Source: Candidatus Omnitrophota bacterium (GTDB taxonomy: Bacteria; Omnitrophota; Gorgyraeia; Gygaellales; Profunditerraquicolaceae). Taken from it: DNA of 64,000 nt. Each line of letters starts with the position of its first letter. The first letter of the stretch is position 1. The DNA lies in the NCBI GenBank assembly GCA_028715415.1, contig JAQURX010000002.1, forward strand, positions 119,144 through 183,143, read 5' to 3'. Under the pieces are notes generated by a model that ran no database searches, was not told the DNA's origin, and saw only the letters and a program-made list of their open reading frames with translations. The position numbers were made by a program, and so were the translations under genes. Below are positions 21,001-57,000 of this stretch, piece by piece.

Positions 21001-24000
21001 GCATAATAGACTATGTTAAGGGGGCTTTTGTTCTTTCTATTGCTGCGATTGTTGCCCTTGATAATTTTGGCTATCTTTTTATAAATTTTGTCGCGAAAGA
21101 ACCGTCCGCTGATTGGAATAAAGCTTTCTGGATGCTGACCAAAGGGAACCGAGGGCTTAGCGTAATTATAACGTCCGCAATTTCCATTTGGCTTGCGCAT
21201 ATTGGTTTTACGCAGATTCCTTTATTGTTGAACGGAGTAACTTCTTTATCAGTAGTTTTCTATTCCATTATTGTGCTGACATTTTTGCCTTGGACAATAA
21301 TAGATACTTTAATTGTCATGAAATCCGGCAGGCTAGAATCCTCGCTCTTTCCTTTTCGCTTCTGGAATAGATTTGATTCCTCTCATCAATTGGGAAAGGA
21401 TATATTATCCGGTAAAGTGCCTCCAAATATTTATGATCATCCTAATGATACCCAGATGCTTTGGCTGGGTAATGCCGAAGCGGTTTTTGCTTCTTTGAAA
21501 TATCCTCAAAAAACAGAAGAATTATTATCAAAAGTTGTTTCTGAGGCGTTGGCGAGAGGTAAGAAAAGCATTGGTTTTAAGTTAACCATGACTGTAGCTA
21601 TAGAAGAATTCTTAAAAGCTTTCTGTGAAAAAATGTACCTCGGTTTTAAAAAAGAGGAGCAAGCCGGTGGAGAAATAACCTTAACGCTTATACAGAAGCC
21701 GAGAGAAGATGTCTTAAGTATTAAAGGGCACATAGTAAAACCTAATTATAAAATAAAGGTTCTTGGCTCAAATATTATAGTTTGTTTTGCAGAGAGGCAT
21801 TTAAGCAATATTACGAAAAAGCTTTGTTGGAAGTGCAAGTTTCATATTGATACTATCCCCGGGGTTATCGCGGTTAGAGGAAAGATCGATGATGATAGAG
21901 TGTCATATTGTCCTATAGAAAAGCACGACCCTATAATCCTATTTACTGATACTCCTAAAACTAGTACATTCTTGGTCCGAAAAGTTTCTGAAGAAACAAG
22001 GGAACTTGAGGCAAAACTTACCTTTACTGTTCTTTCCGTAAAAGAAAATGGCGAGATAGAATTGGATATTAAATCTTCTGTAGAGACGAGGATAAATATT
22101 TTCTTTAAGAAAAGTAAGGTAGATTCTTTTGTTGTCGGGCCGGAAGATGATCCAGCCCGAACAGTTCCACCTTTAAAGAATCGTCAGGCAAGAGAGGAAT
22201 TAAGGGCAATTAGGAATAGGTATGCTGGAGAAATTTCAGCTTTTGCTGTAACTAATAAATATGACCCATTCCGCAGTATGGGTTGTGGTATTCTTAAAAT
22301 GCTTAAAGAGAAGAAGGTCGCCAATATTCTTAAGGGAGCAGTTATTGCGCGCGCTCCTCCTGAATCAGCTTTAGTAAGTGAAATTAATGAGTTTGAAAAA
22401 AAATATCAAGTTAAAGTCCGCGCTTTAAATCTTGCCCCAAATATTATCGCAATGCTTGCTCCGAACCCTAATCTACAAGATTTAGTCCATGAAGCATCTT
22501 CTTTATCCGGCACAAATGATTTTGTCAGCGAGTCATTAGCTAAAAAATGCGCTTATTATAGGCATGCTCTTCCAAAAATAATCGGCAAGCCCGAGAAAAC
22601 TAAAAAAGAATTTATTGAAAAAGTTAGAAAAGAGTTGCTGAAAAATCCTGTCATCGATATTAGCCAGATAAATATATTAATGCCTAAGATAGAATTCTTG
22701 GCTGAACTTTCCGCTAATACAGAGTTTACAGGCAGAAGTGAACAAAGAGTAGTTGTTGAGCATATACTTGGCAGGTTGAGGGATTTAATTTCTCCATGCA
22801 TTATCGGAGCATCACAATCTGAGAGATTAAGGGAAATAGGCCAGCAGATAAGATGCAGCCAGATTTTGCTTGAAAATATGTGGTTAAAGCGTAAGTTTGA
22901 AGCAATTGCATACAACCGTATGGGTTGGATATGGGGAGTTGCCTTCCAGCGCGAATTTGCTTATCTTTCAGAATATATATTAGCCTTAAGGGTTTTTGGT
23001 TATCCTCAGTCAGCTGTTTCTTGCACAATAGAGAGCATGGATTATTGCCTTGCCCGCCTATTTACAGCGATAGAGCATTTTATCCCTATGTCTTCTTACG
23101 ATGACGATGAATTGCGCAGAAAAGTATTCTCTCGCCTTATGGCTGATCTGGTTGAAGATAAAATATATAGCTTAAGATGCCTTTCCGTTAAAGATAGAAA
23201 CAAAAATCGATGTATTAAAGTTTTGAATGAAATTGATTTTGAGCAAATAAAGCAAGTTATCAAGAATGTAAAAAGAAATGAAATGCTTCGTGAAAAAGAG
23301 TCAGAAAGAAAGTTGGCAGGAGAATCATCTTCAGGATTCTCAGGTGGTGGGTTAGGTCCGTCATTAAGGCTATATCCTCTTCAATCACAGGTTCATTCAT
23401 TAGAACAGCGGTTAGCATTACTTCAGAAGACAGCCGCTATTAAAGATGAACCGATCGATGAAGTCCCGGAAGAGTTTAAGGTTGAGCTATCTACTTTTAG
23501 CATTGATTCTTTTTCTTTGAAGAGTACGATTGTAAGTTTGCAAAATCCGCGGACCTACCGATCTCCAAATGGCAATGTTTTCGTGGATTATTCCGGGAAT
23601 ACCATATTAATCCAAGTAGAAGGGCCTGATGCTGAGCGGGTAAGAGGCGATTTAGATATTTTTAAGATAATCGTTGAGCTGGATAAAAATGGTGGTTATA
23701 AGAAAATATCTACATTTCCCGGATTATCCGGACTAAACTTTAGAACCATTGCAATTATTCTGCAGGATTCAGAATTTAATCAAAGTATTACAAACTTACC
23801 ACCGAGATTAAAAGAATATTTTGTTTTACCAGAAGTAGATGATGCTTTACGCAGACAAGAAGCTTTAGCTACTAAGGAAATACCTTTATTTGAATATCAG
23901 CAGCAGATAAACGCTTTAAAAATAGATGAAGACCTATTGGCTGCGCTTGAGGATTTAAAATTCGCAGACTCTCAGACGATCAGGCGCAAGGCAGTTGTTT

Positions 24001-30000: not shown

Positions 30001-33000
30001 TGCTTAGAGCTTACGCAGATCTAATTATGAGATACCTTAGGGAGAGCGATGATCCTATAAATAGTGTTCAGAGCCTTTTGGAGTTTCCCGAAGCTGTGCT
30101 TGATTTGGCAGTGTTAAATGCAGAGGTATTTTATGCGCCTGCAGAATTATGTTATCGCAGATACGATGAATTTACCGGTAGATATGTAAATGTTTTTGAT
30201 AAAGATGATTTTGAAAAAGAAGTAAAGTCAGGACGGGTAATAGATATAGGAGGGAAGTACTATTTTCCAATTAAAAATCCCTTCATTCCTTATGACAATG
30301 TTCATAATCGTGCCTTGCTTTATAATTCTCGAGGAGTGGACATCGTATACAAAGGAGCAGGTGCATCAGCAAGAATTGTAAAGCACGGATTAATTCTTAA
30401 CTTTAGCCATGACAAGAGCCCGCATATATTATATGGTGGGCTTCCTTCGTCCGAGGCAACCATAGATGTTGATGTTTCATTTAGAAAGGCTTACCAACAG
30501 CTTAAGGCTGAAGAAGACCCGGGGTTACTGCTTGCTGAAAGAAATGGCGCTCGTATCGATATGTATAGAAAACCGATAGCTATGGCAAGGCTTGAAGCAT
30601 TTCCTGTGGTTGTGCCGAATGGTAGCGTTAACGAAAAACAAGCCAAAGAATTATTAAAACATGCGGTTAATAAACCTGATTCACTTGGCCTACCGGAAAC
30701 TGTGAAGCTCATATTGGCGCAGCACTTCCTTAATTTTATAGGAATCCCTAAAGACAGCAAAGAAGAAAGGGATCCTACAGAATATATTTATAGTGTTCCG
30801 GTAAACCGGAGATATCAGGAAATGGATTCTCTGAAAGCTTACGGTCCGGTTTTTGAGTATTATGGTTATAAAGTTAAGTTTGATCGCAAGAAAGGAAGAA
30901 TCTATGCCAAGAACAAGCAAGGCAAGACTGTTGATTTCTCTTCGGTCAGGCGGCAAGTCGTAATTTCTGCTGCTGTCAGGTATGCCTTATTTTTGCGTAT
31001 TTTGCATAAGAAGTTTAATGGCTGCGGGTTTAATAAATATGGTTCGGTTTTTAGTGAGCATAACTGCAATCCTATCACAATATTTGATTATGATGTTATT
31101 AGATATAACGAATTAACCAAAGAAACCCGCGAAGGTGATTTAGGACAAGCAGAGGAGGCGTTGGCTAGGCTACATCTATTATATACAAGCGCTTTTCTTG
31201 GAGAAAAACGTGGTGATGATGAAGATGAATTATATGAGGATAAGTGGGCGAGCAAAAGAATTTTTGATGGAATATATAACGCTCCAATGGATAAAGGGAC
31301 CGTTTCTCAAGCTGAAGCTAAAAGTGCCCCCCTTACAGATAGGAGGAACACTTCTCCGAACGGCCCAAGAACCGGTCTCCGAACAGCTCAAGAACCGGTT
31401 TCTAAGGTTGTGGCTTTATTGCTTATGCTCGGGCTTTGCCTTGCGCAGTTAGGATTTACTTCGCCATTTACGCATATTCTTAATGTAACCGGTGTTGGCC
31501 TTATTATTCTTGGGCTAATTCTTGTTTTTTCCGGGCAATCTTTTGCGCAAAGCAATAGCAGTGCCTCATCCAATAGACGCCTTTTACAAGTCAGGAAGAT
31601 TGCAAATGTACTTAAAGATTTGAGATATCCGAAAGAAGGCATTAAAGATATTCTTCGTAAAATCACTCCTCTGGTTTCAGAAGTTAATCAGGCGAGGATT
31701 AATCTTAGTTGTGAAGATGATGGCCAACTTAAATCTGAGCTTAAGCGTTTGGTCGAGATTCTTAGATCCAATACCCATACAAGTTGGCTGCAATTAAACT
31801 TAATAAATGACTTAGTTGGTTTTGATATTTTTAAGGAGATAGATGGCTCAGTAGAGAAAGGTAATTCCGAAGAAGCAATGCGTAGAAAAGCGACTATGTT
31901 GGGGTGCGTGCCTCTTTCTCAGTTAATGTATGTAATTTTAAAATCATGCGGCTTGGAAGTATATGGAGCCATGACAATGAAACATGCATTTGCTTTAGTG
32001 CTTTTGGAAGATGGAGAAAAAGGCCTAGCAATTGACCTTCTTTTTGGCGTAGTAAGGAAAATTAATTTAAGTAAATATTATAACTACAATAAGGATACCA
32101 GAAGTTATATCCTTAAGCCTAAATTTGTGATGGCGGAAGAGGAAATTGAGGAGTTTAGAAAGAGTTTGGGGGAGGGTGAAATTAATCCTGAGAAATTATC
32201 TTCCTCTGAAAAAATAGGCTTTTTAAATTTAGTATGCCCATATTTCCAATTAACGAATTCTACCGGTTTATCTGCCGCTATTTATACTAACTCTGGGAAT
32301 GTTACTATAAAGTATGGCCTTGAGAAAGTCCCCTTTCAATCAGGTGGTTATTCCAGAGGGCAAGAATGTTTTTGTTTTTATGAACTGGCAAAGAACCTTG
32401 ATTTAATAAACGCTTTTAATAATTACAATCGTGGGCTTGCGGCTATGCATTTTGAAGATATGGAAGTCGCCCTTGATGCTTTTCAGCTTGTAATAGATGC
32501 TTTTCCTTGTTTTGAACCTGCTGTCGAAGCCTTTGAAAGAGTAGAAGAAAAACTTCAAGTAGAAGAAAATCTTCGTAATGGCGGAGATTTCTTTTCAGCG
32601 ATGGATTTTAATTCTTTTTGGGGGAATAGCTGTATTATTTCCCCGTATTTAATTTTATCTTCTTTAGGATTCAGATGTGGGATTGGTTCGCAGCAAACAG
32701 GCATTATCGAATCTCTCTGGTCAACGGGTCCGCTGTGGATGGTTGCACTAATGGTATTTTCTTTTGTTACATATCTATTCTTTGCAGGATCTTCGGGTGC
32801 ATTAACGAGGAACAATGCTCGTTCAAACGAAGAATCATTTGGCGTCATATTGGGATACGACTATGAGCGGTCAGTTATAAAGCCGTTATCACGCCAGTTG
32901 CAACAGCTTGCCCAAAATAAACTTAAACCTGTATTGACTATTAATGAAAAAGGATTAGCCGTAGCTGATTGGGTAAGCGATAAATTTAGAGAATACATTG

Positions 33001-36000
33001 TTTCCCGCAGCCATTCCATTCTTGCTCTATATAATGAGCTTATGCAGGCATTAAAGGAGAAAGGTTTTGCTCCGGCAACGGTTATAGTTCATTCTTCTTA
33101 TATCGTAGCAACAGAGGCTGAAACTTTTCTCGAACCAGAGTTAACCCTAGATACTTATGCTTGGGATAAACACGATAAAATTTATAATCTTTTACCTGAA
33201 CTCGCAGGGGGAGAAGAAATAGTTAGTTTTAGGGATTCAGAAGGCAGCCTTCATTTGCCTTTTGGGTATTTTATGCCCGATACAGGTTTTGCATTAACTA
33301 AATTAATGATGGCTGAGGCGAGTTTGGGCGCTTTAGCCAAGGACACAGCAGAATTAGAAGCATGCGCTCTTAATCATACTTACGAGGAGCTTTTTAATGG
33401 AAAAGATTTTACTTTTAAGCGTGATGATATTGGAGGAGATATTGACAAAAGCAGGATTTTGCCATTTTTAGCTTTAAAATATCATTTTGAAATCTTTTTG
33501 CGCAAAGTCTATGAGATCAGGAAATATCTTGAAGAAGGAGATCTTACAAACTTAACTATACTAAAAGAAGAAATGATTCAATTTATGGCTACGACAATTG
33601 GCGATTGTGGTTTGGATGAGAAGCAAATAGCTGAAAATTGGATAATAGATAAAGAAGTGACAGATGCAGTGCATAATTTTATTATTTCAGCCCGCGTAAA
33701 GAATGCAGGTGAACTTAAGCTTTCGGTAATTAACTCTGCTTTGCTTAACTTCTTTGCGTTTTTGTCTTTAAATGAATCCCCGCGAATTCCCGAGAATATT
33801 TCAGCCACAGATTTTAGTAAAACAACCGAGTTAGCAGCCCTAAAAAGCCATATTTTACAACGACAGGTAACAAAAGAACAACTCTTAAGGGAGCTTTTTA
33901 AGAGGAAGGTGGTTTATATTCTTGATGAAAAAAGGATGCGAGGCATCGCGGAGTTGTTAGGGGAGGTCCCTAATAATACCATGGTAGTTTTTCATGGTTT
34001 TTACTATGCGCTTAATTGCGGTTCTGGTATTGATGAGGAAAAAGTTAATCAGTCATTAAATGACTATCTTCAGAATGGGGATAATAAGTGCTTGGACGTT
34101 CCTTCATCTTTACAATGGGATGAAATTGCATGTGCAGCTTCAAGTTCTCTTAAAAAGGCTTTTGATTATTTGCATCAGCGCAATAGACGAGGCGCTAATA
34201 TAACTTATCATACTGATTTATCCGATTATTTATTCCAGACTATTAATAGTGTTACAGTTCCTTTTGGGGATAGGATAAGTAATTTTACAAATATTTTAGC
34301 TCAAAGTGCTCAGACAAGAAAAGCAGAGCATATATTAATACTCGGCAGCCGAAGGATGTTCCCGATGGACGAAGATTTCTTGAAACCGAGCAGGAACAAG
34401 CAAGGGCCGGTTGTTGAAAGATTAATTGAGGTTTTTGGAAGAGATAATGTAGCTTTAGCCTTAAATCTAATTTGTGTTGATTCAGAAGAAAACATTATTT
34501 CCCGTGCAATTTGGGGGAGTAGTTTAACTTCTTTTGCTTTAAGAGGGCCTTTGCCAGAAACTATACTTCCTGCGCCTATTTGGGATAAGGTTGGAGAAAA
34601 ATATATTTTTGGTAATTTCCCACAAGGTATTTTTGTCACTGCAGTTAAATCTGATGATGGCGATGATCGCAAGCCCGAGCCTGTAGCTCCAGATCCCGAG
34701 CCTGTAGGCGAGGATGCTCCTGTTGGGGATCTAGTTTTGGCGTGCCACACCTTGCCGGTAGTATTGTTATTAGGTTTATTAGGCCTTGGCGGATGCGGGG
34801 TCGTCTCTCATCATGCGTCCTACGTCCTTCAACAGGATTTAACTGTTGAATCCTGTTGGGCGACGGGGACGTTGTGGGTTGTTTTTGTCATGCTTTTTGC
34901 TGTGTCGATGATGTTTGCAGTGCCGGGAAATAATGGCCAATTAGGCAGAGTAAGTGGTAGTTTAAGTCTAGCCCATGCTTTAAGGTGCTCGTCAAGTTTA
35001 TATAGGTATAATGTGTCGGCAGGGGATATACCAGCTCAAGCTAAAGATAAAAGGCTATATTGGGAAAGAAAGATACAAGAGGCCCGAGACAGAAGTGATA
35101 GAAGTGGTTGGCAAGCGCTCACCACATTAAGCAGGTTAAATCATATGGAGTTATGGGCAAATTTAATAATAGATAGGGAGACCACCAGAGGATTATTGAT
35201 CTTCGGAGAAAGCACAAGTGGTAAATCAACAATTACTTCTTTGATGCTGGGTCTTAATCCAAAAAGTAAAGACGTTGGTTTAAGCAATCGTTGGATTCTG
35301 GGAGTAGATGATTTAGCTCAAGGATTCTTTGTAAAAGATAATTTGATAGCCGGGATGAAGCCTTCTTGTGATGGTAGGAATAGATGCAATTTAGAGGTGC
35401 CAGTAGAAGCAAAGCCTCTTTTTGTAGTTGTTGGCATGGTTGTGTTTTTAAATTTAAGATTCGTTCAAAAAGAGCCCATACTAAAAACAAGATTGACACA
35501 TATCCTTAGGGAAATGCACGAATCAAGTTATTTTGCTTTGACAGAAGATTTTTATAGAACACTCCCAATATTGCCTTTATTTGAGGCCCGGGTTTTAGAT
35601 AATTGTGGGCGTAGATGTGATTATCCATCTTTGGCTAAAACAATCGAAAAGACTTGGTTACAAGTTCCCGCAGTGGGGAATGCGACATCGAAAAGGTTAG
35701 CTTTGCTTAATTCTGATGCAGGGAGAAATCACTGGAACGCAACATTTTATTCCGTATTACCCATTATTTTATTCCCGCTAAGCCATTTGCAGATCCAAGA
35801 GCTAATTGAATCCCTCTGGTCAACCGGACCGCTGTGGGTGGTGGTAATATTATTGATTTGCACATTATTCTTCGCAAGCCCAAGCAGTAACAGTTTCCCC
35901 TTTAAGTCCGAAACAGTTTCTAAGAGGAAATTCTATGTAATATTAGAAGAGCATAATAGTATTCGCCTGCCTCCGGAATTAGCAAATAAAATCCTTCTTC

Positions 36001-39000
36001 TGTATCTGACTACACAAGATAGAGCATTAGTTTTTTCAGAGAATCGGAATCTTTTGCCGGATAAAGACTGGGTAAAAGTTGTTGCGGTTGCAGAAGAAGG
36101 CAGAATTTATCTTGATAAGAATTTAGTAAAAGGCCTGGATATAAGCGAAGAAAACGAAATCCCTCTTGTTTATTTAGAAGATAATAGCCCTAAAGATTTT
36201 GCACAACCTCTGCCTATTCGAAGTGCAGATAAGCCGGTTGAGAAAGAAAAGTTTTCCATCAGGCGTCTTGTGTATGGACAACTTTTGGAGTGGACTGAGA
36301 ATTTGATGGTAGAAGATACGCAGTATCAGAAAGTAAGCTCGCCGAGTAGAGGGGGAGAGGAAAATACTGTTTATATTTTTGTAATTGAAAATAGCACTCC
36401 TGAGAAAATAGCCGGCCATGTACAAGTTGTAATCAGAAATAATGACAAATCGTTTGAACGCGGCAGTAACTGGGTGCATCCTTCGCGGGAAGATAAGGCA
36501 AGCATAGAAGAAAAGTTGGATGCGGCTTACAATAATTTTGTTAAAGAGTGGCCGACAATGATGGCAGGGAAGTTAATAAAAATGTTCCTGCGCACGAGCT
36601 GTTTAATTGTATTTGCGTTATTCGCGCTTCTCTATTTAGGCGGATGCGATTTGTTTGTCCTTAGCTCACATCCTACGGAAGCCGACTCTTGGGCATTTGG
36701 TGGGCATTTATGGAGATTATTGCTGGCATCATTACTCGCAGGCGGGTTTAGTTTTGCGGGGATTCATTATGGTTTTGGCAGTGCAAGCGCGAATTCCGCA
36801 AAGCCAACCGTGGTTCATATTATGAGTAATCTTGGGCGAGGTGGAGCGGAAAGAAATACTTTGAATCTGGTAGCAGGATTGAATAAGCAATTGTTCAAAA
36901 TTATCCTTCTTGTCTGCTCTGATAATTCAGAGTATCCCGAAGAGATAAATGAAGCTATAAACGAATACGGAGTAGAAATCCGCTATTTGCCTGAAATGGC
37001 AAAACGAAGAAAACTACCTAAGGGGATTTCTTATATATATCACCGAATATATAGAGTAGTTTATTTATCCAATGTTTTAAAGAAGATAAATCCGGATATT
37101 GTGCATACCCATTGTTTCCATATGGGATTTTTAGGAGGAGTGGCTGCAAGGTTAGCCGGTATAAAAATAATAGTCTCAACCCCTCATTCTGAGCCTCCCA
37201 AGTGGCGTTATTCCTCACAAGGCAAGAATAAAGCAAGTTTGGCTTTTATGGATAGAATAATCGCCCGCGTTAGCCATTTCATCATAGCTATATCACATAT
37301 TGAAGAAAGCCGGCGCAGAGAACAAGATTTTAACAGAGTCGCAGTAACAACAATTTATCATGGTATTGACCATAATAAATTCCTAAAAGATAGTTCAGTT
37401 AAGGTTAGAAATGAATTGCAAATTGATTCTAATGCTATTGTAGTGGGTACAGTTGCTAATTTGTTTGAAGTTAAGGGTTATCCTTATTTGATTCAAGCCG
37501 CAAGGGAAGTGGTTAATAAATTTCCAAAAACAGTTTTCCTTATTGTCGGCGAAGGCGATATGCGTAAAATCCTAATGCAACAGGTGGAGAGTTTGGGGCT
37601 AAAAGAAAATGTTAAATTTTTGGGGCGCCGTGAAGACATCCCCGAAATTCTTTCAGCTATTGATTTGTTTGTTCTGCCTTCTTTAAGCGAGGCATTCGGT
37701 ATCGCAATTATGGAGGCAATGATTGTCTCAAAACCTGTAGTCGCCACTAAAGTAGGCGGGATCCCTGAATTGGTTGTTGATGGTAAAACGGGGATTTTAG
37801 TGCCGAACAAAAATTCTTCTGCATTAGCAGATGCGATTTGCTTCCTCTTAAAAGATAGAAAGAAAATGCAGGAAATGGGGCAAGCCGGAAGAAAACGGAT
37901 TATTGAAGGATTCTTATTGAGCCGCATGGCTAAGAAATACGAAGCAGTATATTTAGGCTTACTAAATGCAAGAGCACAGAAATTGCCGATTACACCGGGT
38001 GTATACACATTTGGGAATAATGGAAAATTTTCGCCGGATAATCATTACTCAACTATACCTAAAGCCTGCGGGTTAGGGATTTATGAAGGTGGAAGAATTA
38101 AGCCGGATGTTGTGCTTCAGGCGGAAAGTAAAATCGCAAACGCAACTACAGCAAAACTATTAACCAGATATCAAGATTGTCCTGAACTTGGCCCTCAGTT
38201 AATTGAGCTAGTCCAGGGAATTTTAGGCAGGCATAATAATCTTTATGTAATTAATGATGATCAACCATTTATTTGGCATAACGGCAACAGGTTCTTATTT
38301 AGTTATGTAAAAGGGCACGATATCCATCTTACATTAGGGTTTATTAAAACAATTATCGCTGTAAATAAAATGAATCTTTTTGCTACGTTATTAGAATTTG
38401 AAAAGATGAATATTGAAGTTAAAAATGAAGATATTGAGCAGGCAGAGAAATTAGCCAGAGAAATTCTTCATGTTGTTCTATCTCATGCTATTTTCTGGAC
38501 AAGCCCCATTGCAGCTTTGGTTACAAAAGGACAGTCCCACGCAGTATCTGAATTGATAAATAAGGTTAAAAAAGATGGCGCGCATATCTATGCTGCGGAT
38601 ACAAATGGAGAATTGGCAGAAGCTGTTTTAGGAAAAGTTCCTGAAGTAAGCGGGCAAGCCTGGCGCGTGCACGCTTTGGATTTAGGAACACAGTTTTATC
38701 TTTATGATGATGGTAGGGATTTTAGAGTTTATGGATATGTTTATTTGGATCCCGAAAAAGCCAAGGAGCATCTTCGTTATCCGCATATCATAATTACGAA
38801 AGCATTATGGGAGAGGTTTAAAGAAGGTAAGATTGATCTAATTGAACCGGTTTGTTTGACTTTGCATGCGGTTTTTGCAGAGAAAAAGTGCGATGCAAGA
38901 GTAAAAATAGAAATTGATATAAAAGAGGATGCTCTCCCGATAGGGGAATTCTTAAAAGAAGTACAGCTAGATCATCCTGCAGATGACGTTGTCCGGGAAG

Positions 39001-45000: not shown

Positions 45001-48000
45001 GAATTAAATTAGCAGTAGACGATATAGAGAAAATAGTTTTTGAACTGGGTTGCAATATCCACAAATACGGAGATAAAGGCATAATTACTTTAAGGATAAT
45101 ATATTTAGAAGACAGGATTGCAGGGGTTGAGATTGTTGCAAGGGATGTGGGAAAAGGTATTGGTGATGTTGAGCTAAAGAGGAGAAGTGCTTTTAGTGAG
45201 GTTAGTTTGAATATTGGCGAAGGAAATGGATTAAGGACTATTATTGGGTATCCTGAACCATCAATTTTTTCCAGAGAAGGCGAAGTCGTTTATGAAACAG
45301 GCGATGGCAGTATCGGCCGCAAATTTATTTATGACTCTGGTAAAAATGAATTCGTGGAATTTCCGGAAGGAAGCAGTATCAAGCAAGGTACTCGCGTCAG
45401 ATTAACGCTAATTAAAGGAAATCCCGGGAGTACTTTATTAGGTATTGTATTTTTGCCAATTTTTGCGTCTCCATCGTTTACTTTTCTAGTAAGTGTGGCA
45501 GCAATTGTCTTATGCGTAGCTATGCTTTTACTTCTTCCGCTAATAAGAAATACCTTGAGCGCTATAAAATCGAAAAATCCTTTATATAAAAATAAGTTAG
45601 AACTTGAAGCGCAGATTGCCGAAAAGGTAAGGGTTTTGTTTGGAAAAAAGATTTCATTCAAGGCCCTATTTAGTAGAAAATCAATTTCAGTTGAGCGGGC
45701 TCGTAGAGGATTTAGTAATTTTACAGTTAAGAATATTACCGATAAAGGGGAAGAATATCAGAAACTTCGGAGTTTGGTTAAGTTATTAGCGCAAAACTAT
45801 GAAGAAATAAGCGCGGCATCAGAAAAGAAGAAGGAAAAGAAGAAATACCTTAAGGCAGCGCTTGTTTTGTATGAGTTGCTTATGCTTTCTACCCCGGATT
45901 TTATTGAAAAGCATCATTTTTGCATTAAATCAGCTGATTGCCATAAATTATTAGGGGACAGAGTTGGCGAGAACACTTATACGCATGCAGCATACGGGAT
46001 GCTCCAATCAGCTAAAGATAATCCTCAATTTGCTGAATTAGAAAAACAGGTTTTATCCAGAATACATTCTGATAATCATCCTGTTCCGGAGCAAAGCCAT
46101 ATAGGCATAGATTCTATGGGCCCAGAAGAGTATGTTTTTGGGATAGGTGTAAGAATGACAGAAACAGCCGATGGAAAATTAGGGTTGATTTGTGATTTTG
46201 ATAGAAATATCCCAGTGGATAGATACGAGGCAATTTCACAATATTTAATTGGCCTATCGAAATGCTATGGCGTGGGGATATTGATTAATTTAAACAGGGT
46301 TGAAATTTGGCGTAATTTAAGCACCAAGTCAGCAGGCGACTTTGCTTTAGGTACTATGCGTTTAGATGAAAGATTATTGAATCCAGAGGCAAGGCCTATT
46401 TTATGGGAAACCATTTTCCATGAAGTGATGACAAGCCTGTTAGTGTTGATTGAGCCAAATCGCGGGGTGCGCGAAGCTGTAGCAACAAATTTAAGCATTA
46501 AGCATTATTTAAATCCGAAAGAATTTATTTTTGGTTCGCAGAATGCCCTGGAAGATACTTTACGATATCGCAGGAATTTTATTGTAGCATTAAACTCCGG
46601 AATCTTTGAAGTTGCTCAGCCGCTTCGTGAGTTATACGGCAGCATAGAAGCTGCTTCCGGTAATGAGTTCGTAAATATTAAAGTATTTGAGAGTATTAGA
46701 AGCCAGCCACGTTATAGCCTGGAAAAAGATAAGTTGGAAGAAATTGAGAAACAAGGCGATCCATATGAAATAGTCCAGAATTCAGTTAATTTAATGAATT
46801 GGTTCTTGGAACAAGTCAATACTGTTGATTTTGTCTGGAGATATATAACTAAAGGCCAAGCAGGAAAAGATAATATCCTTAATATTATTAACGCGTCTAA
46901 TAATGATAATCCTGTGACGGTATGGAACTTAATAGTTTCGTCGCTAATAGCAAAAAGATTTACTCAAAGCAGAAGAATGGATCAAAATGGATTAATTATT
47001 GCAAACGCGATAATTGTATTAGCCCGAGTTTATGAACGCAGAATTATATTAGAAATGAAGAAAACTATAAGCTATGAGGAGCTTTTATATTTGTCTTTAA
47101 TATTAAATGAGCAGGGCCCTGTTAAGACTGACCTTCAATTCTGGGCTTTGGAAAGAGGAGCGTTTAAAGATGTCACTGTAGCTATAGAAAAAATTGCAAA
47201 TTTAAGGGGTAAGTTGGAAATTCCCGAAGTCAGATTCTATAGGCGGTTACCAGCTTTAATAGAATTTGCTTTAGCGCCGAATACAGTAGTCCCTGAAGGG
47301 GCGCATTTGGTTGTAAGTGGATATGGCGATAGGTTAAGAAAGGTACGAAATGCACAAAAACTCACTAAACAAGAAGTCAGTTTTTTAACCGGTGGAAAAG
47401 TTGATGCCGGGCGTATTAAAAGATGGGAAACGGAAAGAGTTTTGCCTCAGATGGATTTGTTAAAAATAGTAACCGATGCATTAGGTGTGCCTTTAATCCA
47501 CATAACAGATAATGCAGGAGATGTGGATTGGGATATCTTGAGATTGCGAGCGAATCGCGCTCCAAGAATAAGAAAGGTAAGGGAATTATTTGGGTTTAAG
47601 CCTATTTATGTTGCCAAGGCTTTAGGTTCAAATGTCGGGGATTATGTGTTGAGGCTTGAAGAAGGGGAAATTTACCCTAGCTTAGAAGTCATTACAAAAT
47701 TAGTTTCAGTATTTAGAGATGAAGTGAGTGCAGAATATTTCTTGGTAGGCACAAACGAGCCTGATTGGACAAAAATAGGTGTTGTTGATGGATGGGAAGA
47801 GCGGATTAAAAATGTTATAAAACAACTTGATTTGAATGTTGTAAAGCTATATCTAACAAGTCATATTGATGATCAGCGTTTTAAACAAATGATGCAGGGG
47901 GTTCTCAGGCCTTCTGTTTTAGAGATGGAGAGAATTGCTGGATATTGTTGTATTCCTCCTGAATATTTGATAAAAGGCACAAATGAACCGGATTGGAGTT

Positions 48001-51000
48001 TGTTTGCATATATATTACCCGGATATGGAATGCGTATTCGTGATTTAAGAGAAAAAAATATGCTTAAGTCTTGTGAATTAGCGGAGGTAGTTGGAGTTGG
48101 TGATGATACTATTTGTGATTGGGAATTTGAGAGAAAAATTCCTTTAGATGAAAATATTACTAAATTATCTAACGTATTAAAAGTTGATAGAATGTATATT
48201 TTAAAGGCGCTAAATCCTCCAGATTGGGATAATTATGGAGTAAAGCCTGGCTATGGCGGGAGAATTTCCAAAGCAAGATTAAAACAAGGATATTTTATTA
48301 GAAATTTAGCAAAGTTAGCAGGATATTCTCAGAATACAATAATTGGGTTAGAGAATGAGGATATTGGGCTTAGCCCATTTATATCAGAGGTTCTTGCAGA
48401 AGTATTGGGAGTTACAGTTGATTACCTTGCGCGTGATAAGAATCCTCCGGACTGGGATAATTTTGGCATTACCAAAGGCTATGGCAAGAGGATTAGGCGA
48501 GCTAGGTTGGCTAAAGGGTTGGCTCAATGTGAATTAGGTAGAAGTATAGGTTTATCAGTTAGTAGGGTTGCGGCTTGGGAGAAAGAAGAGATTGAATGTC
48601 CGACACACGAAGCATTAGAGCGGTTTGCTAAAGCTTTGGATGTGCCGATTGAGTATTTAAAGAATGGGCAAAATGCGCCAACGTGGATAAAAGAATATAA
48701 GTCAAAAGGTGCAATCGCAGGATATGGCGCGAGAATATATAAAACAAGAATAAGAAATGGTTACACAATTGAATACTTATCAATATTAACAGGCATTGAC
48801 CTCCAGACATTATTGTATCTTGAGTTAGAAAGAAGAGATAGGGTTATACCAAGAAGAAATATTTTAAGTAAAATTGCAAATGCATTAGGCGTATCTGTGG
48901 AATATATTCAGCGATCTCAAAATCCTCCGGATTGGAAAACTTTCGGAATTATTAATGGCTATGGTAGAAGAATTAGAAAAGCACGAATGGCATTAAGAAT
49001 GAGTGGGGAAGAATTGGGATTAAGAATGAATATAACAAAAAGCAATGTTTACCAATGGGAGAGTAGAGAATGGGTGGCTGGTTGTCCTATACATGAAAAA
49101 TTGGTAGCTTTTGCTTCTGCCTTAGGGGTTTCATCAGAGTATATACGAAGAGCTACAGATGAACCAGATTGGGAAACCTTCGGTATTTCTCAGGCCAGCA
49201 GCATCCTTATTGGAATCCAGCGGGAAAACAAAGGCATGAGCCGGAAAGATTTAGCGGAAAGAATCAAGGTCAATGAAAAACAAATAGCCGAATGGGAAAA
49301 CAGATATTGCCAAGACCTGCCTACATACACTAATTTTAGGCTTATGGCCGAAGCGATGAAAGTGGATATTGAAACGTTAATCCATCTTCCAAAACTTGAA
49401 GAAGCAATCGGGTTAATTGATAGCCTAATTTATAAAGGCATGCATTTAAGCGCGAAATTGTTGTTGGAGTGTTGTGTTGATACATATGGATTATATACAA
49501 ATAAAGAGTTTTCTCATTATTACGTAAAGGATATTGAAAAGAAGCTGTCCAGAGATTTGAGTGAAAAGAAGAATTATTTGATCTCCCTGGGAGTAGAAAT
49601 AAATGATGAATTATTAAATAAGCCTTTACATGTTCTGGAATATCATATTGACCAGACAATTCTTTTGCCGCTTCTAAACGGAAACGGAGAATTTGATAGG
49701 CAATTGATTATGCCGCTTTTTATTTCGGAAACACTAGATGAGTATTGCCCACGCTCAACTGCATTTAGGAGTTTAGCGCGTTTGGCAGAAATTCAACCTA
49801 AAAGGCTTGCGGATAGATTTCTAACGTTATTGCAATTACCAAGTGGAAACGGCCATGGCAACCTGCCGCGAGATTTACTAAGATTTCTTAATACGCCTTC
49901 AGGAGGGGTGTTAATTAATGCTTTGCAGAAAGAAGGAGATGGGTTGGCGAGTTTTATAGAAACGCACAGAATATTAACTGAAAAAAGCAGTTTAGCTCAT
50001 GTTTTGCAAATCCAAGACCAGGCAGGGAATGGAGAGAAAGACCACAAAAAAGTAGATTCTGCTATAAAGATGTTAAGAAATGAAGGAAAGGTGAGAAAGG
50101 CAAAAGCTTCAGAAGTTGAAAGTAACGAATCTGAGAAAAAGTTTGCCGAAGAAACCATCGGCCTTGTTTTGGATAAACCAGTGCATTGGCATACCATTAA
50201 CGCTATCCCGAGAGAATTTCCATTTGGCGGGCATATACATCAATGCAAGAATCATTACGATATTTATATACGAAAGGATCTTTTGAAATCAGGAAAAGCA
50301 GCGCACGAAGTTACGGCCGGGCTTTTGAGAGATTGCAGCCCGGGAAGAGTGCATTCTGCTGCCTGTAGTGTAGAAAACGCATTCCGCAGTAAATCAAAAG
50401 ATTTATCTGAGCCCCGCGGAGAAAACAAAGAAGACTCTTTAACTTTCTCCGAATTAAAGATTAAGCAGCGGAATTATCGTTCGAATCCGCACCAGCCTTA
50501 TTGGTTTTTAGAAGTTGAGCATCCGCATTTTTATGCAACAACCGCGGTTTGCGGGATAGATTTTCTCCCTCCTGATTTACAACCGGCTTGCGGAGGAGTG
50601 GTGTTTAAAAGTATTAAAGGTTGTGATTTGAATAATGTAGCTCTGCGCAGAAGATCGCAGAAAGAAGCCGGGTATCTTGCTCAGGAAGCAGACCGTACTT
50701 CAGCTAGATATAACGGATACTCCCGCGGTGTCGCAACAGTGGTTGTCTCAGATGGAGAAATAAGCAAGAAGAAAGTTTTGATAGAATTATCACGGGCTTT
50801 TGCATCCAGAAAACTTTTAGGTTGGAGATGCATTGCCGCTCCCAGTTTAGGCACTACAGAAGAAGATAGTAATATTATTTCAGATACAGCATATGAGACT
50901 TCTTTACGTGAGTATTTAAAAAATTCAAGAGTTAATTATGTGACAAAAAGAAAGATAGAAAAGATTATTAGGGAGAAAAAATGGAATGAGATTGACCGTG

Positions 51001-54000
51001 ATTTACGCTGGAAATTAAGATTAGTTAAGCCGGCAGTAGGTTGTACAGAAGCTAAAGGTGGGTATCCACCGTTTGCATGGCTGTTGGGTGGAATTAGTTT
51101 AGCAGCTTCTATCCAAACCCTTATTTTGTTTAAAGGTTATGATTGTTTTGTAGATATTATGATAGATGGCTTCGGCCGAACAGGGCAATCTGTTGCGCGT
51201 AGTATTATTCATGATCTGCCAGAAGAGGTAAGGATTGTAGCGGTAAGGAGTAAAGGGGAGAATGCGCAAGGGATTGTTAATCCAACGGGTTTAAATAAAA
51301 TCAGCCTGTTAATGTGTGTGCCGGAAGTAGAAAGAGGGCAGGAAGTTTGTTTAAAGTCATGTTATAAAAGTGAATGCCAGGCTGTGCTAAAGCCGGAATT
51401 TTTCAAGCAAAAAGCAGACATATTGATTCTTACTGACCGCACGTGCAAGATTAGGTATAGAGATTTAAAGGAAATTAAGGCAGATATTATTATAGAAGCA
51501 ATCCCTAATATTCTTTCCCGCAGGCAGATAAATTGGCTTTCCCGCCATGGCAAGACTTATTTTTCTTCGCTTTGTTTTGATGGAGGAATAGCGTTTGGGA
51601 ATAATCGGGAGGAAGTTATACATGAGGATTGTCCGCAGGAAACCGAGCATATTGATAATATGCGTTTACATGTGCAAACCGGAATTAATGAGCTAACAGT
51701 AGCAATTATGTATGATGCCTTGAAAAGGCGTGCAGCTGCAGCTAAAAGATTAGGAGTTGGCAGAACCCTTCCTTGGCAAGCCGGGAGAGTGTTGGCTAAA
51801 ACAATACGCCGGAACGAATATGAATTATGGAAAGAACTGCAGGCAATAACAACAAAACAAAAGAAAATTGATTGCGAGAAAATAATGGATTGGAAGGATG
51901 GATGGAAAATAGCGAAACATCTTATTCCTTGCGCCAGCCCTAAATTAATCCCCGTGTTGAATTTAGCAATTCAAAACAGCCGTAAAGGAAGAAATACCGC
52001 CTTTGCAATCTCCAGCGCTATAGCTGAGGTCGCGCGGCAACAGGCGCTCTATGACGATAACTCACCCGAGGAAGCGATTATTATTTTAGAAACTGATCTT
52101 ATGCAGTTGTTATTTTCTGTCGAGCAGATAGCTATCAAGTATAAAGGTAATATTTCTCCAGAAGATGTCATCGCCGAATTAAAGATAACAGATTCTTTCA
52201 GGATTGATTTAATTGAAAGATTGTTTGTAGAATTTAATAAAGGAAAATACTCCTGGCCATTAGCTGGAGATGATAGAGAAAATATCCTTATTAGTTTAAG
52301 AGGGTTTGAGGTGATGCAAAAGAGGGTAGCAGCTTTTAGATTAACGCGATTAACTCGTCAATTGGTAGAGCTCGGCCTTTTGCCCCGGGCAAGAGGCGTT
52401 TTACTAAAACAATTGGAAGATGCTGATGATTTTCATGTCCGCGAGGATTCCGCGCATGCGTTAGGATTTCTTCTTCTTGAAGAGAAGAATAAGCAGGCTC
52501 GGTGGGTGATCGCTGAAGCTTTGTTGCATGCGTGTTCCGACCGCAGTGAGGCAGTAGCTTTATGGGCTCATTGGGCAATTTCTATGGGCGTTACCGTTAA
52601 AGCAATAAATCTGGATGAGTTATTAGTAGATATTTCTGATGAGATAAGAATGATTAAGGATGAAATTCGCGGAGTAGATTTGAAGCGTAGCCAAAAAAGG
52701 AATACTCCCGATATTTTAGGTTATTTATATGAGATGAAAGCCAACATATGTGCTTTAAAAGACCAGAAGAAGCGTGCGTTACAAGCTTATAGGTCTGCAC
52801 GAAAACAGTACAAAAAAATGGAGAAATTGATACATGGCCCGTTAGCATTAAAATGTTCTTTGTCTTTGGCCAAAAGTTTGCAGCAGGCAGGCTATAGATC
52901 ATTGGCGATGAAGGAATTTCTTAGCCTGGTTAATCCTGAACAGATGAAAAAACATGCCGGGTATTCAACTATATTTGGGAAATTAGGCGGGCAAGAATAC
53001 TGCCTTTTGGCGCTGGAAGGCATTTTGCATATATATTCACCTATGACTCCGGAAGTTAATATACAGGTGGCAAAAAGAATTAACACTTTATTGGCTTGTA
53101 TAAGCGAAAAAGGTTGGAAAAATGTAGATTTAAAAAAGAAATTTAACCCTCTAGTTGAGATATCAGAACTTATGGTTGCGGATTTATCCGGGCAGGTGGT
53201 TTCTTATGCTCATTATCTAGGTTTGATTCTTATTTATGGAAGTGAAGTCTTTCATAGTGAAGGGTGGGAGAAAATTCAGTATGTGATAGAAGATGTTTTA
53301 ATGTATGCTGATTTAACTGATAAGAAAAATAAAAATCTTCCGGATGTAGCAATAATTTCACAGCTTAATTATAGATGCAGAAAATATAAATTAAACCCGA
53401 TTGAACATGATTTATTGTTTGGGATATTCAAAATCCTAAAGATTATTCAATCACGCGTATTTACTTTCTCAGACGAAGTTGTTTCCGGGGAAAGTATTTT
53501 CTCTTCTCGTAGCCAGGTCTCAATGAAGTTGAGATTTAGCAAAGGAAGATTCCAAATAGAACAAAGGGGGTTTCCTTTATCAAGATTATCCCCAGATGAG
53601 AGGGAGGAATTTAATAGTATACTGGGTTTTGTAAATCACAGCATACATGCGCCTCCGGAATATGATCCGAGTTTGCGTTTTTCTCCGAGCCACACCTCTG
53701 TTTGTAATCTTCGTTTTGTTTCTCACATAGATTCTGTCCAAGGTAGAAATCCTTCCATTGTTTATTGTCCTGAGATGCGCACTCTTTATATCAACCGTAT
53801 CCTTTTGGATAAGCGCATTCCTTATAATTACAAACAAGTTGCTTTCTTTGAAGACGCAGTCTTGCATATGTTTTATGGTTTGGATGAAAAGGAAGCCAAG
53901 CCGTTATTGCGGCGGTTTATTCAGGATAATATGCTTGCAAGGCCGCTCGAGGTGTTTCTTGTAGACCAGCAAGGAGCTGGATTATTAACTAACGCGCCGC

Positions 54001-57000
54001 TTTTAAGCCTTATTGGATCAGGGAAGTCAGTTACTCCGGAAACTGTGGCATTATACAGTTTTCCTGTATGCCTATTTGTGGCTGCATGGGACTTACTTAA
54101 GAAAATAAGATGGTTGATGATCGGGGTTGTTATTTTTATTACAATTTTATCCGGCTGTGCTACTAAAGGCAGAGTTAGCGTTATCGGCCAATCAAAGGGG
54201 AATAAAGATATTTTAAGGGAGTTAGAAAAGGAAACAGGTTTTATCCCTGAGTGTAAAGCTGAAATCTTAGCGATTGGTTTTGAAGGGCTTGGCAGCCATA
54301 ATATGCGTAATTACCTGGCAAATTTACACGATAAGTATATCCCTCAACTTGAGTATTTTATGATTGATGACCATCGTAAGGATGCTGTTGAAATAGTTAA
54401 ACGCGCAGTTAGGGCAGGAAAGATTATTGCTATTCTTACTTATAGTAACAACAGTAGCGTCTTTATGGGGCTTGGTGGTGGATGGCATGATTTTAGTGAA
54501 GATTTAAAAAAGATAAAGGTATGGATTGATATTGCTAAGTTTGACGATGATAATTGGAATCCTGAAATTGCAGATAATATTATTATAGTTCTTAATCTTC
54601 ATACTGATGATGTCATTCAAGGCCCATCAATGTATGCGCGAAGATTTGAAGGAGAGCCTTTAGCGATTGTTGACCGGAAATATATTAACCTTGGGCATTT
54701 GCGTATGCCTCTCGTCCCAGAAGATGCCACAGAAGATGAATGTTGGTATGCTATATCTTCAAATGAATTGTTTATCAGGGCTTGTAATCTGGTTTATGAG
54801 TTAAAACAAAAAGGCAAATTTCCCAGCACGCAGCCGTATGTTAAACCTGTAAAGATGCAGCATAAACGCCGCGGTTCCATCTCTTGGCAGGCGCTTCTAT
54901 GCTGTGCGGTTTTCACGATTCTAGGATTTGTGGGCATTGCATTGTTAAATATTCATAATGATGCTGTTGCTCAAATGGCTTCTATATCTGGAGCAAGCCC
55001 GGAGAATAATCCTGCGAGCTTAGTTCTAGATACTGCAGTAACTTTCGGTGAAAGTTCTGTTTTGGGGCTGCAAGAATCTTTATTATGGATCGTATTTGTT
55101 TATGCGGCAGCGATTATTGTGTTATTGGTTGCTGTGGTGTTTGTTTTCCACAAAATCCTGGCCGAGAAATCCATAATTAAAGACAGCGGAGAGGTATATT
55201 TTGAAAACCAAAGTTATCAGGCGAAATTATTTAATCTATCTATTTCCAGCCAGGGCAATGATGCTGAAACAGGTTTTGGGTTTAGTAAAGAGGGAAATAG
55301 CGGCGAATTGTTTATAGGGGAGAAAAACGGAGTTGATTTTATTGGAATCCAAAAAGGGCAATTTTATGGAGCAGCGCATTGGCATCCGATAAATTCAAAG
55401 AAAAATTATTTTCTCCCTAGTTTTGAAGATATATACGAATCTTATAGATACGGAATAGACTTAGCCGTTGTTGTTTGGGGAAGAGGGAATGATCTATTTG
55501 CGACTGAAGTATCCTTGCCTTTGCTTGAAGACGGCCCGATTAAGCCCTATCAAAGATACCAGAAGTTTATGGATGATTACGGCCCTAAAAAAGCGCTTAA
55601 AATATTAGAAAAATATTCTGTAATAAAATGTTATCAGCTTAGGCTGGAAGCAGGAAGGTATATCTCTAAGCAAATTCATGCAAGGCAGGTTTTAGAGGCG
55701 GTAAAAAGATTAAGTGGAGAAAAGCCCGGTTTACGCTGTTCGGGTTTGTTGTTTGCTAGCGTAATTCCGATGCTGGCGAGTAATGATGTAGGAAGTGTAA
55801 TGCCGCATGCGCCTCCATGGATCCCAATATTGTTTTTGGCCGCAATTTGTTTGTCGTATCTTATCAGTATTTCTAATTTTTCGCAATCAAATGCAAATTT
55901 CCCTCTGGAACAAGATTCTGAAATTACGTTGGATCAGCTAACAGAGAAGATAATTAACAATTGTATGAATGGAGACTTTAGATTGCTTAGGCTTGATTGG
56001 GGACAGGCAATCCACCAGCATCAAGAGTTTATTAAGCACGCCGCTGCAATAAATTCCGCAATTAAACATTTGCTTAAAAACCGTCAGGAAGATTTCATAA
56101 ATTTTAAAGATTTCCTGAAAGCTGCGATTGCCTGCCGGATTGAAATGTTGGAGCATTATCAAGCTCCTTTATCAGCTGAAGGGCTAAGGCAGATTCAGCT
56201 AACCAAGAATGTTTTAATAAAGGACAATCGTTTAACCCAAGAGGTTCTATTGAAGGAGCTTAATAGGGTATTGAATCCTTTTAGGAATTGGTTTATCTAT
56301 TTGTTTAGCGGAGAAAGAAAGGGTATTTTTAATAATACTTTTAAAAAACAGACTGAAAGGATATATTTGGTTGCGACTTGGGGGTGTTCTACGCAATGTG
56401 ACCATTGTTATATTGCAAGTTTAATCCAGGTTACGATTTTTCCTTGGGTTTGGCTGGAAGAATTAGGAAGTATTAACTATTCTAAGCATGTTGATACATA
56501 TAAAAATGATTTTTTAAGAGATTACTATGATTATGTTTTTGATAAAGATGCTTCGGATGTCGCTGATTTATTTAATATAGGGTCGGTCTCAACTTCCGGA
56601 TTTGCTCTTGGTTCAGTAGGAGAGAGGGCTTTTGTGAAGTTCTTGCAAAACAAAAAAGCTATAGGAGGGATTATTATTAGTGTTGTGCAAAGCGCTTGGG
56701 TGCGCAAAATAGGCGTAGAAAAATATATCAGGTATTTGCAGAATATCGATGGATTGTTCCAAGCTCATGGAAGAAAAGGGACTTCTTTAATATATTTCGA
56801 GTTTTCTCTTAACCGCAGGACTGATCCTGAAAATTGGTTTGAGCCTGTTAAGGGTTTTCTTAAAACGAAGGAAAAAGTCTCGCCAAACTTAGTTTTAGAG
56901 AATGCCGGAAGAATGCGCCAACTCTTTGAATGCGGATTAATAAATGCTAATGTGGTTTCTTCAATGTTTACTCATGAAAACTATAGAAAATATTTTATAA

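Follow-up and report, generated by a model that had tools for sequence, protein, structure and literature searches.

The window considered here is a stretch of 64,000 nucleotides (nt) from a Candidatus Omnitrophota bacterium (contig JAQURX010000002.1, positions 119,144 to 183,143 of the forward strand). Nine Cro/C1 (XRE, P22-c2-like) helix-turn-helix (HTH) domains, chained by short conserved connectors, form a cassette in it that is genuine, old and in frame. Few DNA-binding modules are as common in bacteria as XRE HTH domains, which almost always work as dimers of single domains. The Pfam profile HTH_3 (PF01381) matches nt 46002-50999 at E=2.1e-54, with 181.8 bits against a gathering cut-off of 23 and in 8 separate stretches; the models HTH_19, HTH_31, HTH_26, HTH_25 (36.9 bits) and Phage_CI_repr match the array as well. 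A hidden Markov model (HMM) built from the repeats counts exactly nine copies at amino acids (aa) 15768-16465, nt 47304-49397, with independent E-values from 1e-22 to 1e-33, and zero copies elsewhere in the 21,332 aa. The original prediction, made from the letters alone, of about nine consecutive in-frame XRE domains was thus confirmed, and its period of about 228 nt comes near the measured start-to-start spacing of 225-246 nt (mean about 234). Pairwise identity among the nine is 12-44%. They are named R1 to R9 below; P0001, P0002, P0003 and P0081 denote related proteins, and iE is the independent E-value.

47304-47534, + strand: R1, first of the leader triplet; iE 1.4e-28; reciprocal best hit P0081_R1
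47547-47771, + strand: R2, leader triplet, degenerate start RAPRIR; iE 1.1e-22; reciprocal best hit P0081_R2
47772-47999, + strand: R3, leader triplet, without the helix-1 Arg and helix-3 Glu; iE 1.3e-30; reciprocal best hit P0081_R3, score 186
48006-48230, + strand: R4, type a, acidic, net charge -3, D-D opening the recognition helix; iE 9e-33; best hits P0001_R8 and P0003_R10/R15/R4
48231-48458, + strand: R5, type b; iE 1.7e-29; best hits R7 of the window, P0003_R11 and R5
48459-48686, + strand: R6, type c (P0003 order), basic, +4; iE 6.8e-33; best hits P0003_R12 (166) and R8 of the window (163)
48705-48938, + strand: R7, type b, paralogue of R5, net charge +6; iE 1.8e-29
48939-49175, + strand: R8, paralogue of R6; iE 1.9e-32
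49176-49397, + strand: R9, terminal, without the G-Y-G start and the NxPDW end; iE 7e-25; best hit P0002 R19 (terminal)
48212-48278, + strand: R4/R5 connector NPPDWDNYGVKPGYGGRI, a member of the DNA direct-repeat family described below

Reading frame and nucleotide-level repetition

The array lies in one open reading frame (ORF) that runs through the whole window. From nt 3, the forward frame holds 0 stops over 21,332 codons, the array included, while the other two forward frames hold 1615 and 2286; the uninterrupted frame claimed across the array was tested in this way and stood. The claim that the array is also a tandem repeat at the DNA level, which a repeat finder could misreport as non-coding, failed. 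Tandem Repeats Finder does not call the array even at a minimum score of 30, Rfam gives no match in the region, and only the connector codons are similar, with 67-78% nucleotide identity: a 67-nt direct-repeat family (48212-48278, 48440-48506, 48920-48986) has 67-72% identity and spacings of 228 and 480 nt. Old, diverged protein repeats that lack a nucleotide tandem are reported to be typical of long Omnitrophota proteins (10.64898/2026.06.07.730766).

These data bear on the explanation that the array is an artefact, in which a tandem repeat without coding function, the remains of a pseudogene or a misassembly would be open in one frame by chance. It could draw on the finding that a database of 5.8 billion proteins holds no near-identical protein. 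This explanation is effectively refuted by 64 kb free of stops in one frame against thousands of stops in the others, by nine diverged matches to a protein family with confident five-helix models, by the missing DNA-level tandem repeat and by homologous cassettes in independent assemblies from NCBI, JGI, ENA and Logan.

Relatives and rarity of the cassette

A word-indexed homologue search with the array retrieved one protein at E<=1e-10, P0001 (1170 aa, JGI metagenome), which is a stand-alone ORF with nine repeats. The same search with the whole 1,844-aa segment between the bounding hydrophobic stretches gave no hit at E<=1e-8, although the array alone found P0001; the way in which candidates are selected is the probable reason. 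In GTDB representative genomes and JGI metagenome contigs, the search for close relatives gave only generic single XRE genes or one weak match, and the repeat alignment contained no stretch conserved enough to serve as a search pattern. An exhaustive profile search of 1.84 billion representative proteins yielded 300,192 hits, 231 of them at E<=1e-30, and about 28 of these 231 carry at least nine stretches, up to 34 (counted from the listed table). With 231 strong hits among 1.84 billion, poly-XRE proteins occur in several lineages but are rare; the statement that XRE domains are normally single or at most duplicated therefore holds as a rule and was overstated as a limit. A unit with the same type of connector was found in only four clusters, that of P0001 and those of the following proteins.

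P0002, 2332 aa: 19 repeats
P0003, 3023 aa: 17 repeats
P0081 (NCBI MFA5146366.1, from a Candidatus Omnitrophota metagenome-assembled genome, MAG), 5105 aa: 3 repeats

The connector is longer by 4-6 residues in P0002 and P0001. In P0002, a Sigma70_r4 / ECF-sigma C-terminal domain (aa 488-538, E=1.5e-14) lies directly upstream of the array. P0081 is labelled at NCBI merely as a "helix-turn-helix domain-containing protein"; HATPase_c-like and sigma-like modules that had been seen in it by eye were not supported by Pfam at E<=0.001. Two further poly-HTH proteins, P0036 and P0052, have other linkers and are likewise annotated as Omnitrophota.

Order and history of the repeats

When the retrieved proteins were compared by BLASTP with the 21,332 aa of the window, the array was the sole shared segment. 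All-vs-all scoring of 57 repeats showed that R1, R2 and R3 are reciprocal best hits of P0081_R1, R2 and R3, with 40% identity over 234 aa, and that R4-R5-R6 match P0003_R10-R11-R12 in the same order. Among the results of the analysis, this triplet shared with P0081 is the one tie between the window sequence and Omnitrophota. Within the array R5 pairs with R7 and R6 with R8, and R9, which has no connector, pairs with the terminal repeat of P0002. The internal order is hence conserved: a leader triplet R1-R3, internal units of types a, b and c as in P0003, and a terminal repeat without connector. A position-by-position orthology between the window repeats and the nine of P0001 was considered and is unsupported; orthology is limited to R1-R3, whose counterparts are in P0081, and to the unit types shared with P0003. 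Repeat orthology, taken together with the array as the only shared segment, indicates an old array whose repeats have differentiated from one another and which has travelled as one piece among large proteins that are otherwise unrelated. The cassette is a module shifted between proteins by domain shuffling.

Fold, conservation and the connector

The original prediction described each repeat as beginning with Y/W-G-x-R-I and as separated from the next by a near-invariant linker, and both descriptions hold for most of the array. The start G-[YW]-G-x-R-[IL] is present in seven of nine repeats and absent from R2 (RAPRIR) and R9 (SSILIG). The linker reads [ND]-x-P-[DT]-W at seven of eight junctions (NEPDW twice, TDEPDW, NPPDW three times, NAPTW), typically followed by x2-[FY]-G-[IV], and is replaced by GDVDW between R1 and R2. 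Alignment with P22 c2, 434 repressor and SinR shows that the "G-x-R-I-R..R" start and the "EYL..G" end are ordinary helix-1 and helix-5 signatures of the family, so the array-specific feature is, as judged by these alignments, the connector, N-x-P-D-W plus 7-13 residues.

The predicted structures agree with the claim that the repeats fold as five-helix XRE bundles, in which the HTH is formed by helices 2 and 3. For R4-R6, AlphaFold2 (input alignment of six three-repeat blocks) gave a mean predicted local distance difference test (pLDDT) of 90.2, a predicted template modelling score (pTM) of 0.68, five helices per repeat and linker pLDDT of 86-95. The model of the whole array also has five helices in all repeats, with pLDDT 77.9, pTM 0.34 and linker pLDDT of 49-66. 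From the last two values it follows that the global shape is undefined and that a rigid rod or rail is unsupported; a rigid rod was accordingly rejected, as the pTM of three repeats does not carry over to nine.

XRE folds contain a buried salt bridge between an Arg in helix 1 and a Glu at the end of helix 3 (R10-E35 in 434 repressor). In alignments with the 434 and P22 repressors both residues are in register in R1, R2 and R4-R9, and both are replaced in R3, in P0081_R3 and, by reading of the sequence, in the type-c repeats of P0003. Across the 57 aligned repeats the conserved columns belong to the fold core and the connector: G-W/Y-G-x-R-I, the helix-1 Arg, W-E-x-E, the Pro after helix 3, Y62, G66 and E-P-D-W, the last being among the most conserved of all. 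Positions 1-4 of the recognition helix are the least conserved columns and are hypervariable. The array as a whole has a charge of +12 and a pI of 9.0; the unit charges are mixed, and R3 and R4 are net negative.

Another explanation is that the cassette is a passive spacer or rod, in which stable helical beads, their spacing set by the connector, would separate or position neighbouring enzymatic modules without any ligand. We regard this as improbable. It agrees with conservation confined to the fold core and connector above a hypervariable surface, with the well-defined linkers and the pTM of the three-repeat model and with a preprint in which tandem Pfam repeats are the rule in long Omnitrophota proteins and tandem scaffold-type repeats are reported as common (10.64898/2026.06.07.730766). 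The low scores of the nine-repeat model speak against the rod. Moreover, the ordered types and the 40%-identical triplet with conserved helix-3 residues (R-x-K-Q-M in R3) point to constraints beyond fold stability, and the recurrence of the cassette in otherwise unrelated proteins suggests a function of its own.

Host protein and membrane side

3-63998, + strand: host ORF of the array, open past both window ends, at least 21,332 codons, with many transmembrane segments and enzyme domains
45432-45545 (aa 15144-15181), + strand: hydrophobic stretch, Kyte-Doolittle peak 2.95, then K/R-rich RNTLSAIKSKNPLYKNK; N-terminal bound of the soluble array-bearing segment
54099-54158 (aa 18033-18052), + strand: next strong hydrophobic segment downstream, lipoprotein-signal-like with a lipobox, KKIRWLMIGVVIFITILSGC then ATKG

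Because the host ORF exceeds the window at both ends, a standard ORF listing shows no large ORF. The window has a GC content of about 38%, and its GC skew stays above zero over the full length (0.08-0.33). Besides HTH_3, the frame contains Response_reg, Phosphorylase, TPR, Pyr_redox_2, Peptidase_M48, GT4, Alpha-amylase, Methyltransf_23 and Abhydrolase_1, at least ten unrelated Pfam families with none dominant. The best matches of the GT4 segment have 26-47% identity (34-40% among the top ones) and come from diverse phyla, which makes them uninformative as a taxonomic marker. Neither dockerin (PF00404) nor TSP3 (PF18884) was matched in the 21,332-codon frame at E<=0.001, the cut-off being E<=0.01 over its last 1,332 aa. 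A crude hydropathy scan counted about 70 hydrophobic 19-residue windows with Kyte-Doolittle values of at least 1.6, many above 2.2, and the placement of the array inside a giant membrane-associated protein was in this way supported.

Three internal segments resemble lipoprotein signals with a lipobox: nt 36579-36647, the bounding segment at 54099-54158 and 63480-63533 (aa 12193-12215, 18033-18052 and 21160-21177); residue shuffling leads to an expectation of 0.09. A weak match to Peptidase_A8 (signal-peptidase-II; aa 314-442, nt 942-1328, E=5e-4) lies below the cut-off. Given these two features, it is a possibility that the giant protein would be processed or lipid-anchored at internal sites. 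The motif LW[SA]TGPLW followed by a hydrophobic run occurs four times (nt about 17430-17500, 20090-20170, 32700-32790 and 35800-35880; aa 5817, 6705, 10909 and 11942), and this transmembrane motif may be a repeated membrane "punctuation" between modules.

In the sequence on either side of the array (aa 15182-15767 and 16466-18013), Pfam gave no match above threshold and the PDB no sequence match, and no oligomerisation domain was recognised. Within the downstream flank, aa 17050-17086 (nt 51150-51260), IDGFGRTGQSVARSI, give a sub-threshold match to the NAD-binding N-terminus of GAPDH (E=0.0034); with a Rossmann fold of this type there, the preceding hydrophobic window (aa 17025-17043) is probably a Rossmann beta-strand and not a membrane helix. 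The side of the membrane on which the array lies is debatable. A cytoplasmic position is supported by K/R-rich flanks on the array side of both bounding hydrophobic segments, by the presence of 8 Cys in 698 aa, by this sub-threshold NAD-type Rossmann start downstream and by P0001, which is without a signal peptide.

Gene neighbourhoods and termini of the relatives

Downstream of P0001 (L001 4012-10808) lie genes for MoxR (AAA_3), DUF58, BatA and VWA proteins, which make up a Bat-type operon. At L002, A/T-rich elements with repeated GTTACA / TTGTTACA are found at 9905-9935 and 19436-19479, upstream of the P0003 gene and of the next gene, which encodes a 1363-aa phosphoglucomutase-domain protein; these elements might be a shared promoter or operator motif. 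P0081 is immediately followed (L004 25597-35318) by a very large gene (at least 4767 aa) with PALP, AAA_11/AAA_12 helicase-type and HD domains, and large genes cluster in this MAG. A similar C-terminal tail, Y-x6-7-I-x2-A, is present in P0001-P0004, P0008, P0010 and P0081 (P0052 was not in the comparison).

Possible DNA binding or protein docking

Multivalent DNA binding, by which DNA would be tethered to the giant protein, is the single most likely role of the cassette, though only tentatively so; the polyvalent DNA-binding or protein-binding rail of the original prediction is likewise a proposal. In favour of DNA binding are the family to which the domains belong, the structures that match best, the net basic charge of the array and, in P0002, the fusion to Sigma70_r4. 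In the proposed mechanism the chain would act as a multivalent nucleic-acid (DNA) binder. Each domain would make one weak, half-site-type contact through helices 2 and 3, and the covalent chain would substitute for the dimerisation on which ordinary XRE repressors depend. The nine domains would jointly hold DNA against the membrane-anchored giant protein and in this way tether the nucleoid or a locus, or work as a regulator tethered to the membrane.

Several observations weigh against DNA binding. Conservation sits in the hydrophobic core and the connector rather than on the DNA-facing surface. The recognition helix has an acidic start in about half of the window repeats (R3 DD, R4 DD, R9 E, R2 D), and these helices, together with the negative charge of R3 and R4, are a poor fit to canonical operator reading by each unit. 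A search beside the stand-alone relatives for operator-like repeat arrays turned up hairpins and a small number of short repeats in two copies, but no such array. The large poly-HTH relatives P0002, P0003, P0004, P0010, P0052 and P0081 have Sec-signal-like N-termini (e.g., MKKIIYKIISSILIVTFFAQDILWA then DPE), by which their arrays would be outside the cytoplasm. Finally, XRE folds are also known as protein binders (RodZ-MreB, SinR-SinI, Stl-dUTPase) and ribosome binders (MBF1/EDF1), and several of these are among the structural matches of the array.

The last point leads to the alternative that the array is a protein-docking rail, in which XRE folds have been co-opted as in RodZ, SinR-SinI and Stl-dUTPase and would recruit several copies of one partner, or several partners, to the membrane-anchored giant protein. 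We rank this reading second, somewhat less likely than DNA binding and more likely than the passive spacer. Possible partners are a filament of the cytoskeleton or further modules within the giant protein itself. Against docking, the array is matched best, in sequence and in structure, by DNA-bound repressor domains and not by RodZ, no partner was identified, and the 57 repeats show little conservation at surface positions beyond the connector. The fusion to Sigma70_r4 in P0002 likewise points to DNA.

DNA binding could also take a more specific form. The cassette would then be an ordered rail of sub-functionalised XRE modules that reads direct DNA repeats as one composite long site, as an HTH equivalent of zinc-finger or TALE arrays, and couples a chromosome to the giant membrane protein. 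This elaboration is a long shot. Since relatives carry signal-peptide-like N-termini, the chromosome in question could belong to the cell itself, to its prey or to a host.

Significance

The domain and the giant-protein context are known; the chained, ordered, connector-type XRE cassette was found undescribed in the literature searched and is confined to few protein clusters. Neither poly-XRE arrays nor HTH domains in giant Omnitrophota proteins are the subject of any paper that the literature search returned, and HTH/XRE arrays are unmentioned in 10.64898/2026.06.07.730766, in 10.1101/2023.11.21.568195 (West-Roberts et al. 2023) and in Seymour et al. 2023. What is of interest is an ordered nine-domain chain (up to 19 in relatives) with a connector of its own, moved among very large proteins of a phylum that has hardly been studied and may be predatory. 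If it binds DNA, the cassette would be a new way to build a long-footprint DNA binder. It would then also offer a first functional approach to one segment of the giant Omnitrophota proteins, which are otherwise opaque, and to the dispute over the membrane side on which they work. If it does not, it would show clearly how the XRE fold can be put to another use, as a scaffold or docking unit. Being small, soluble and confidently modelled, it is among the few parts of such a protein that are open to direct expression and testing.

Comparison with known systems

Members of the Cro/C1 XRE family (the N-terminal domains of P22 c2, 434 and lambda repressors, and SinR) are single domains in small proteins that bind DNA as dimers. 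Each domain of the array is still a member of this family; the array differs in that nine domains are joined in one chain of more than 21,000 aa through the N-x-P-D-W...G-[YW]-G connector, that several recognition helices are acidic and that no dimerisation or sensor domain is recognisable. Chained DNA-reading modules are known from CUT repeats (CUX1/SATB1) and POU-specific domains, both of the lambda-repressor-like fold, and from Myb R1R2R3, zinc-finger and TALE proteins. The likeness to them is an analogy only, with no sequence relationship, and in the array the inter-domain geometry is undefined (nine-repeat pTM above).

RodZ resembles the array in being an XRE-fold domain within a membrane protein; the RodZ domain faces the cytoplasm and binds a protein, MreB, rather than DNA. 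The array is matched by HTH_25, and RodZ is among its structural hits. However, RodZ has one N-terminal HTH, one transmembrane helix and RodZ_C, whereas the array has nine HTH domains, no adjacent transmembrane helix and no RodZ_C. P0081, P0003, P0002 and P0001 share the repeat unit and connector, P0001 also the number of nine copies, and nothing beyond the array is shared with the window ORF. From the Archaeovorin cluster (dockerin plus TSP3) the host ORF differs, as neither domain was matched in the window. With the giant Omnitrophota proteins described as a "multi-enzyme metabolic cluster" (10.64898/2026.06.07.730766) and with Archaeovorins (10.1101/2023.11.21.568195), it is alike in its length of more than 10,000 aa and its many transmembrane helices. 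The domain mix common to the host ORF and the giant Omnitrophota proteins comprises glycosyltransferase, methyltransferase, peptidase, response-regulator receiver, TPR and signal-peptidase-II-like domains.

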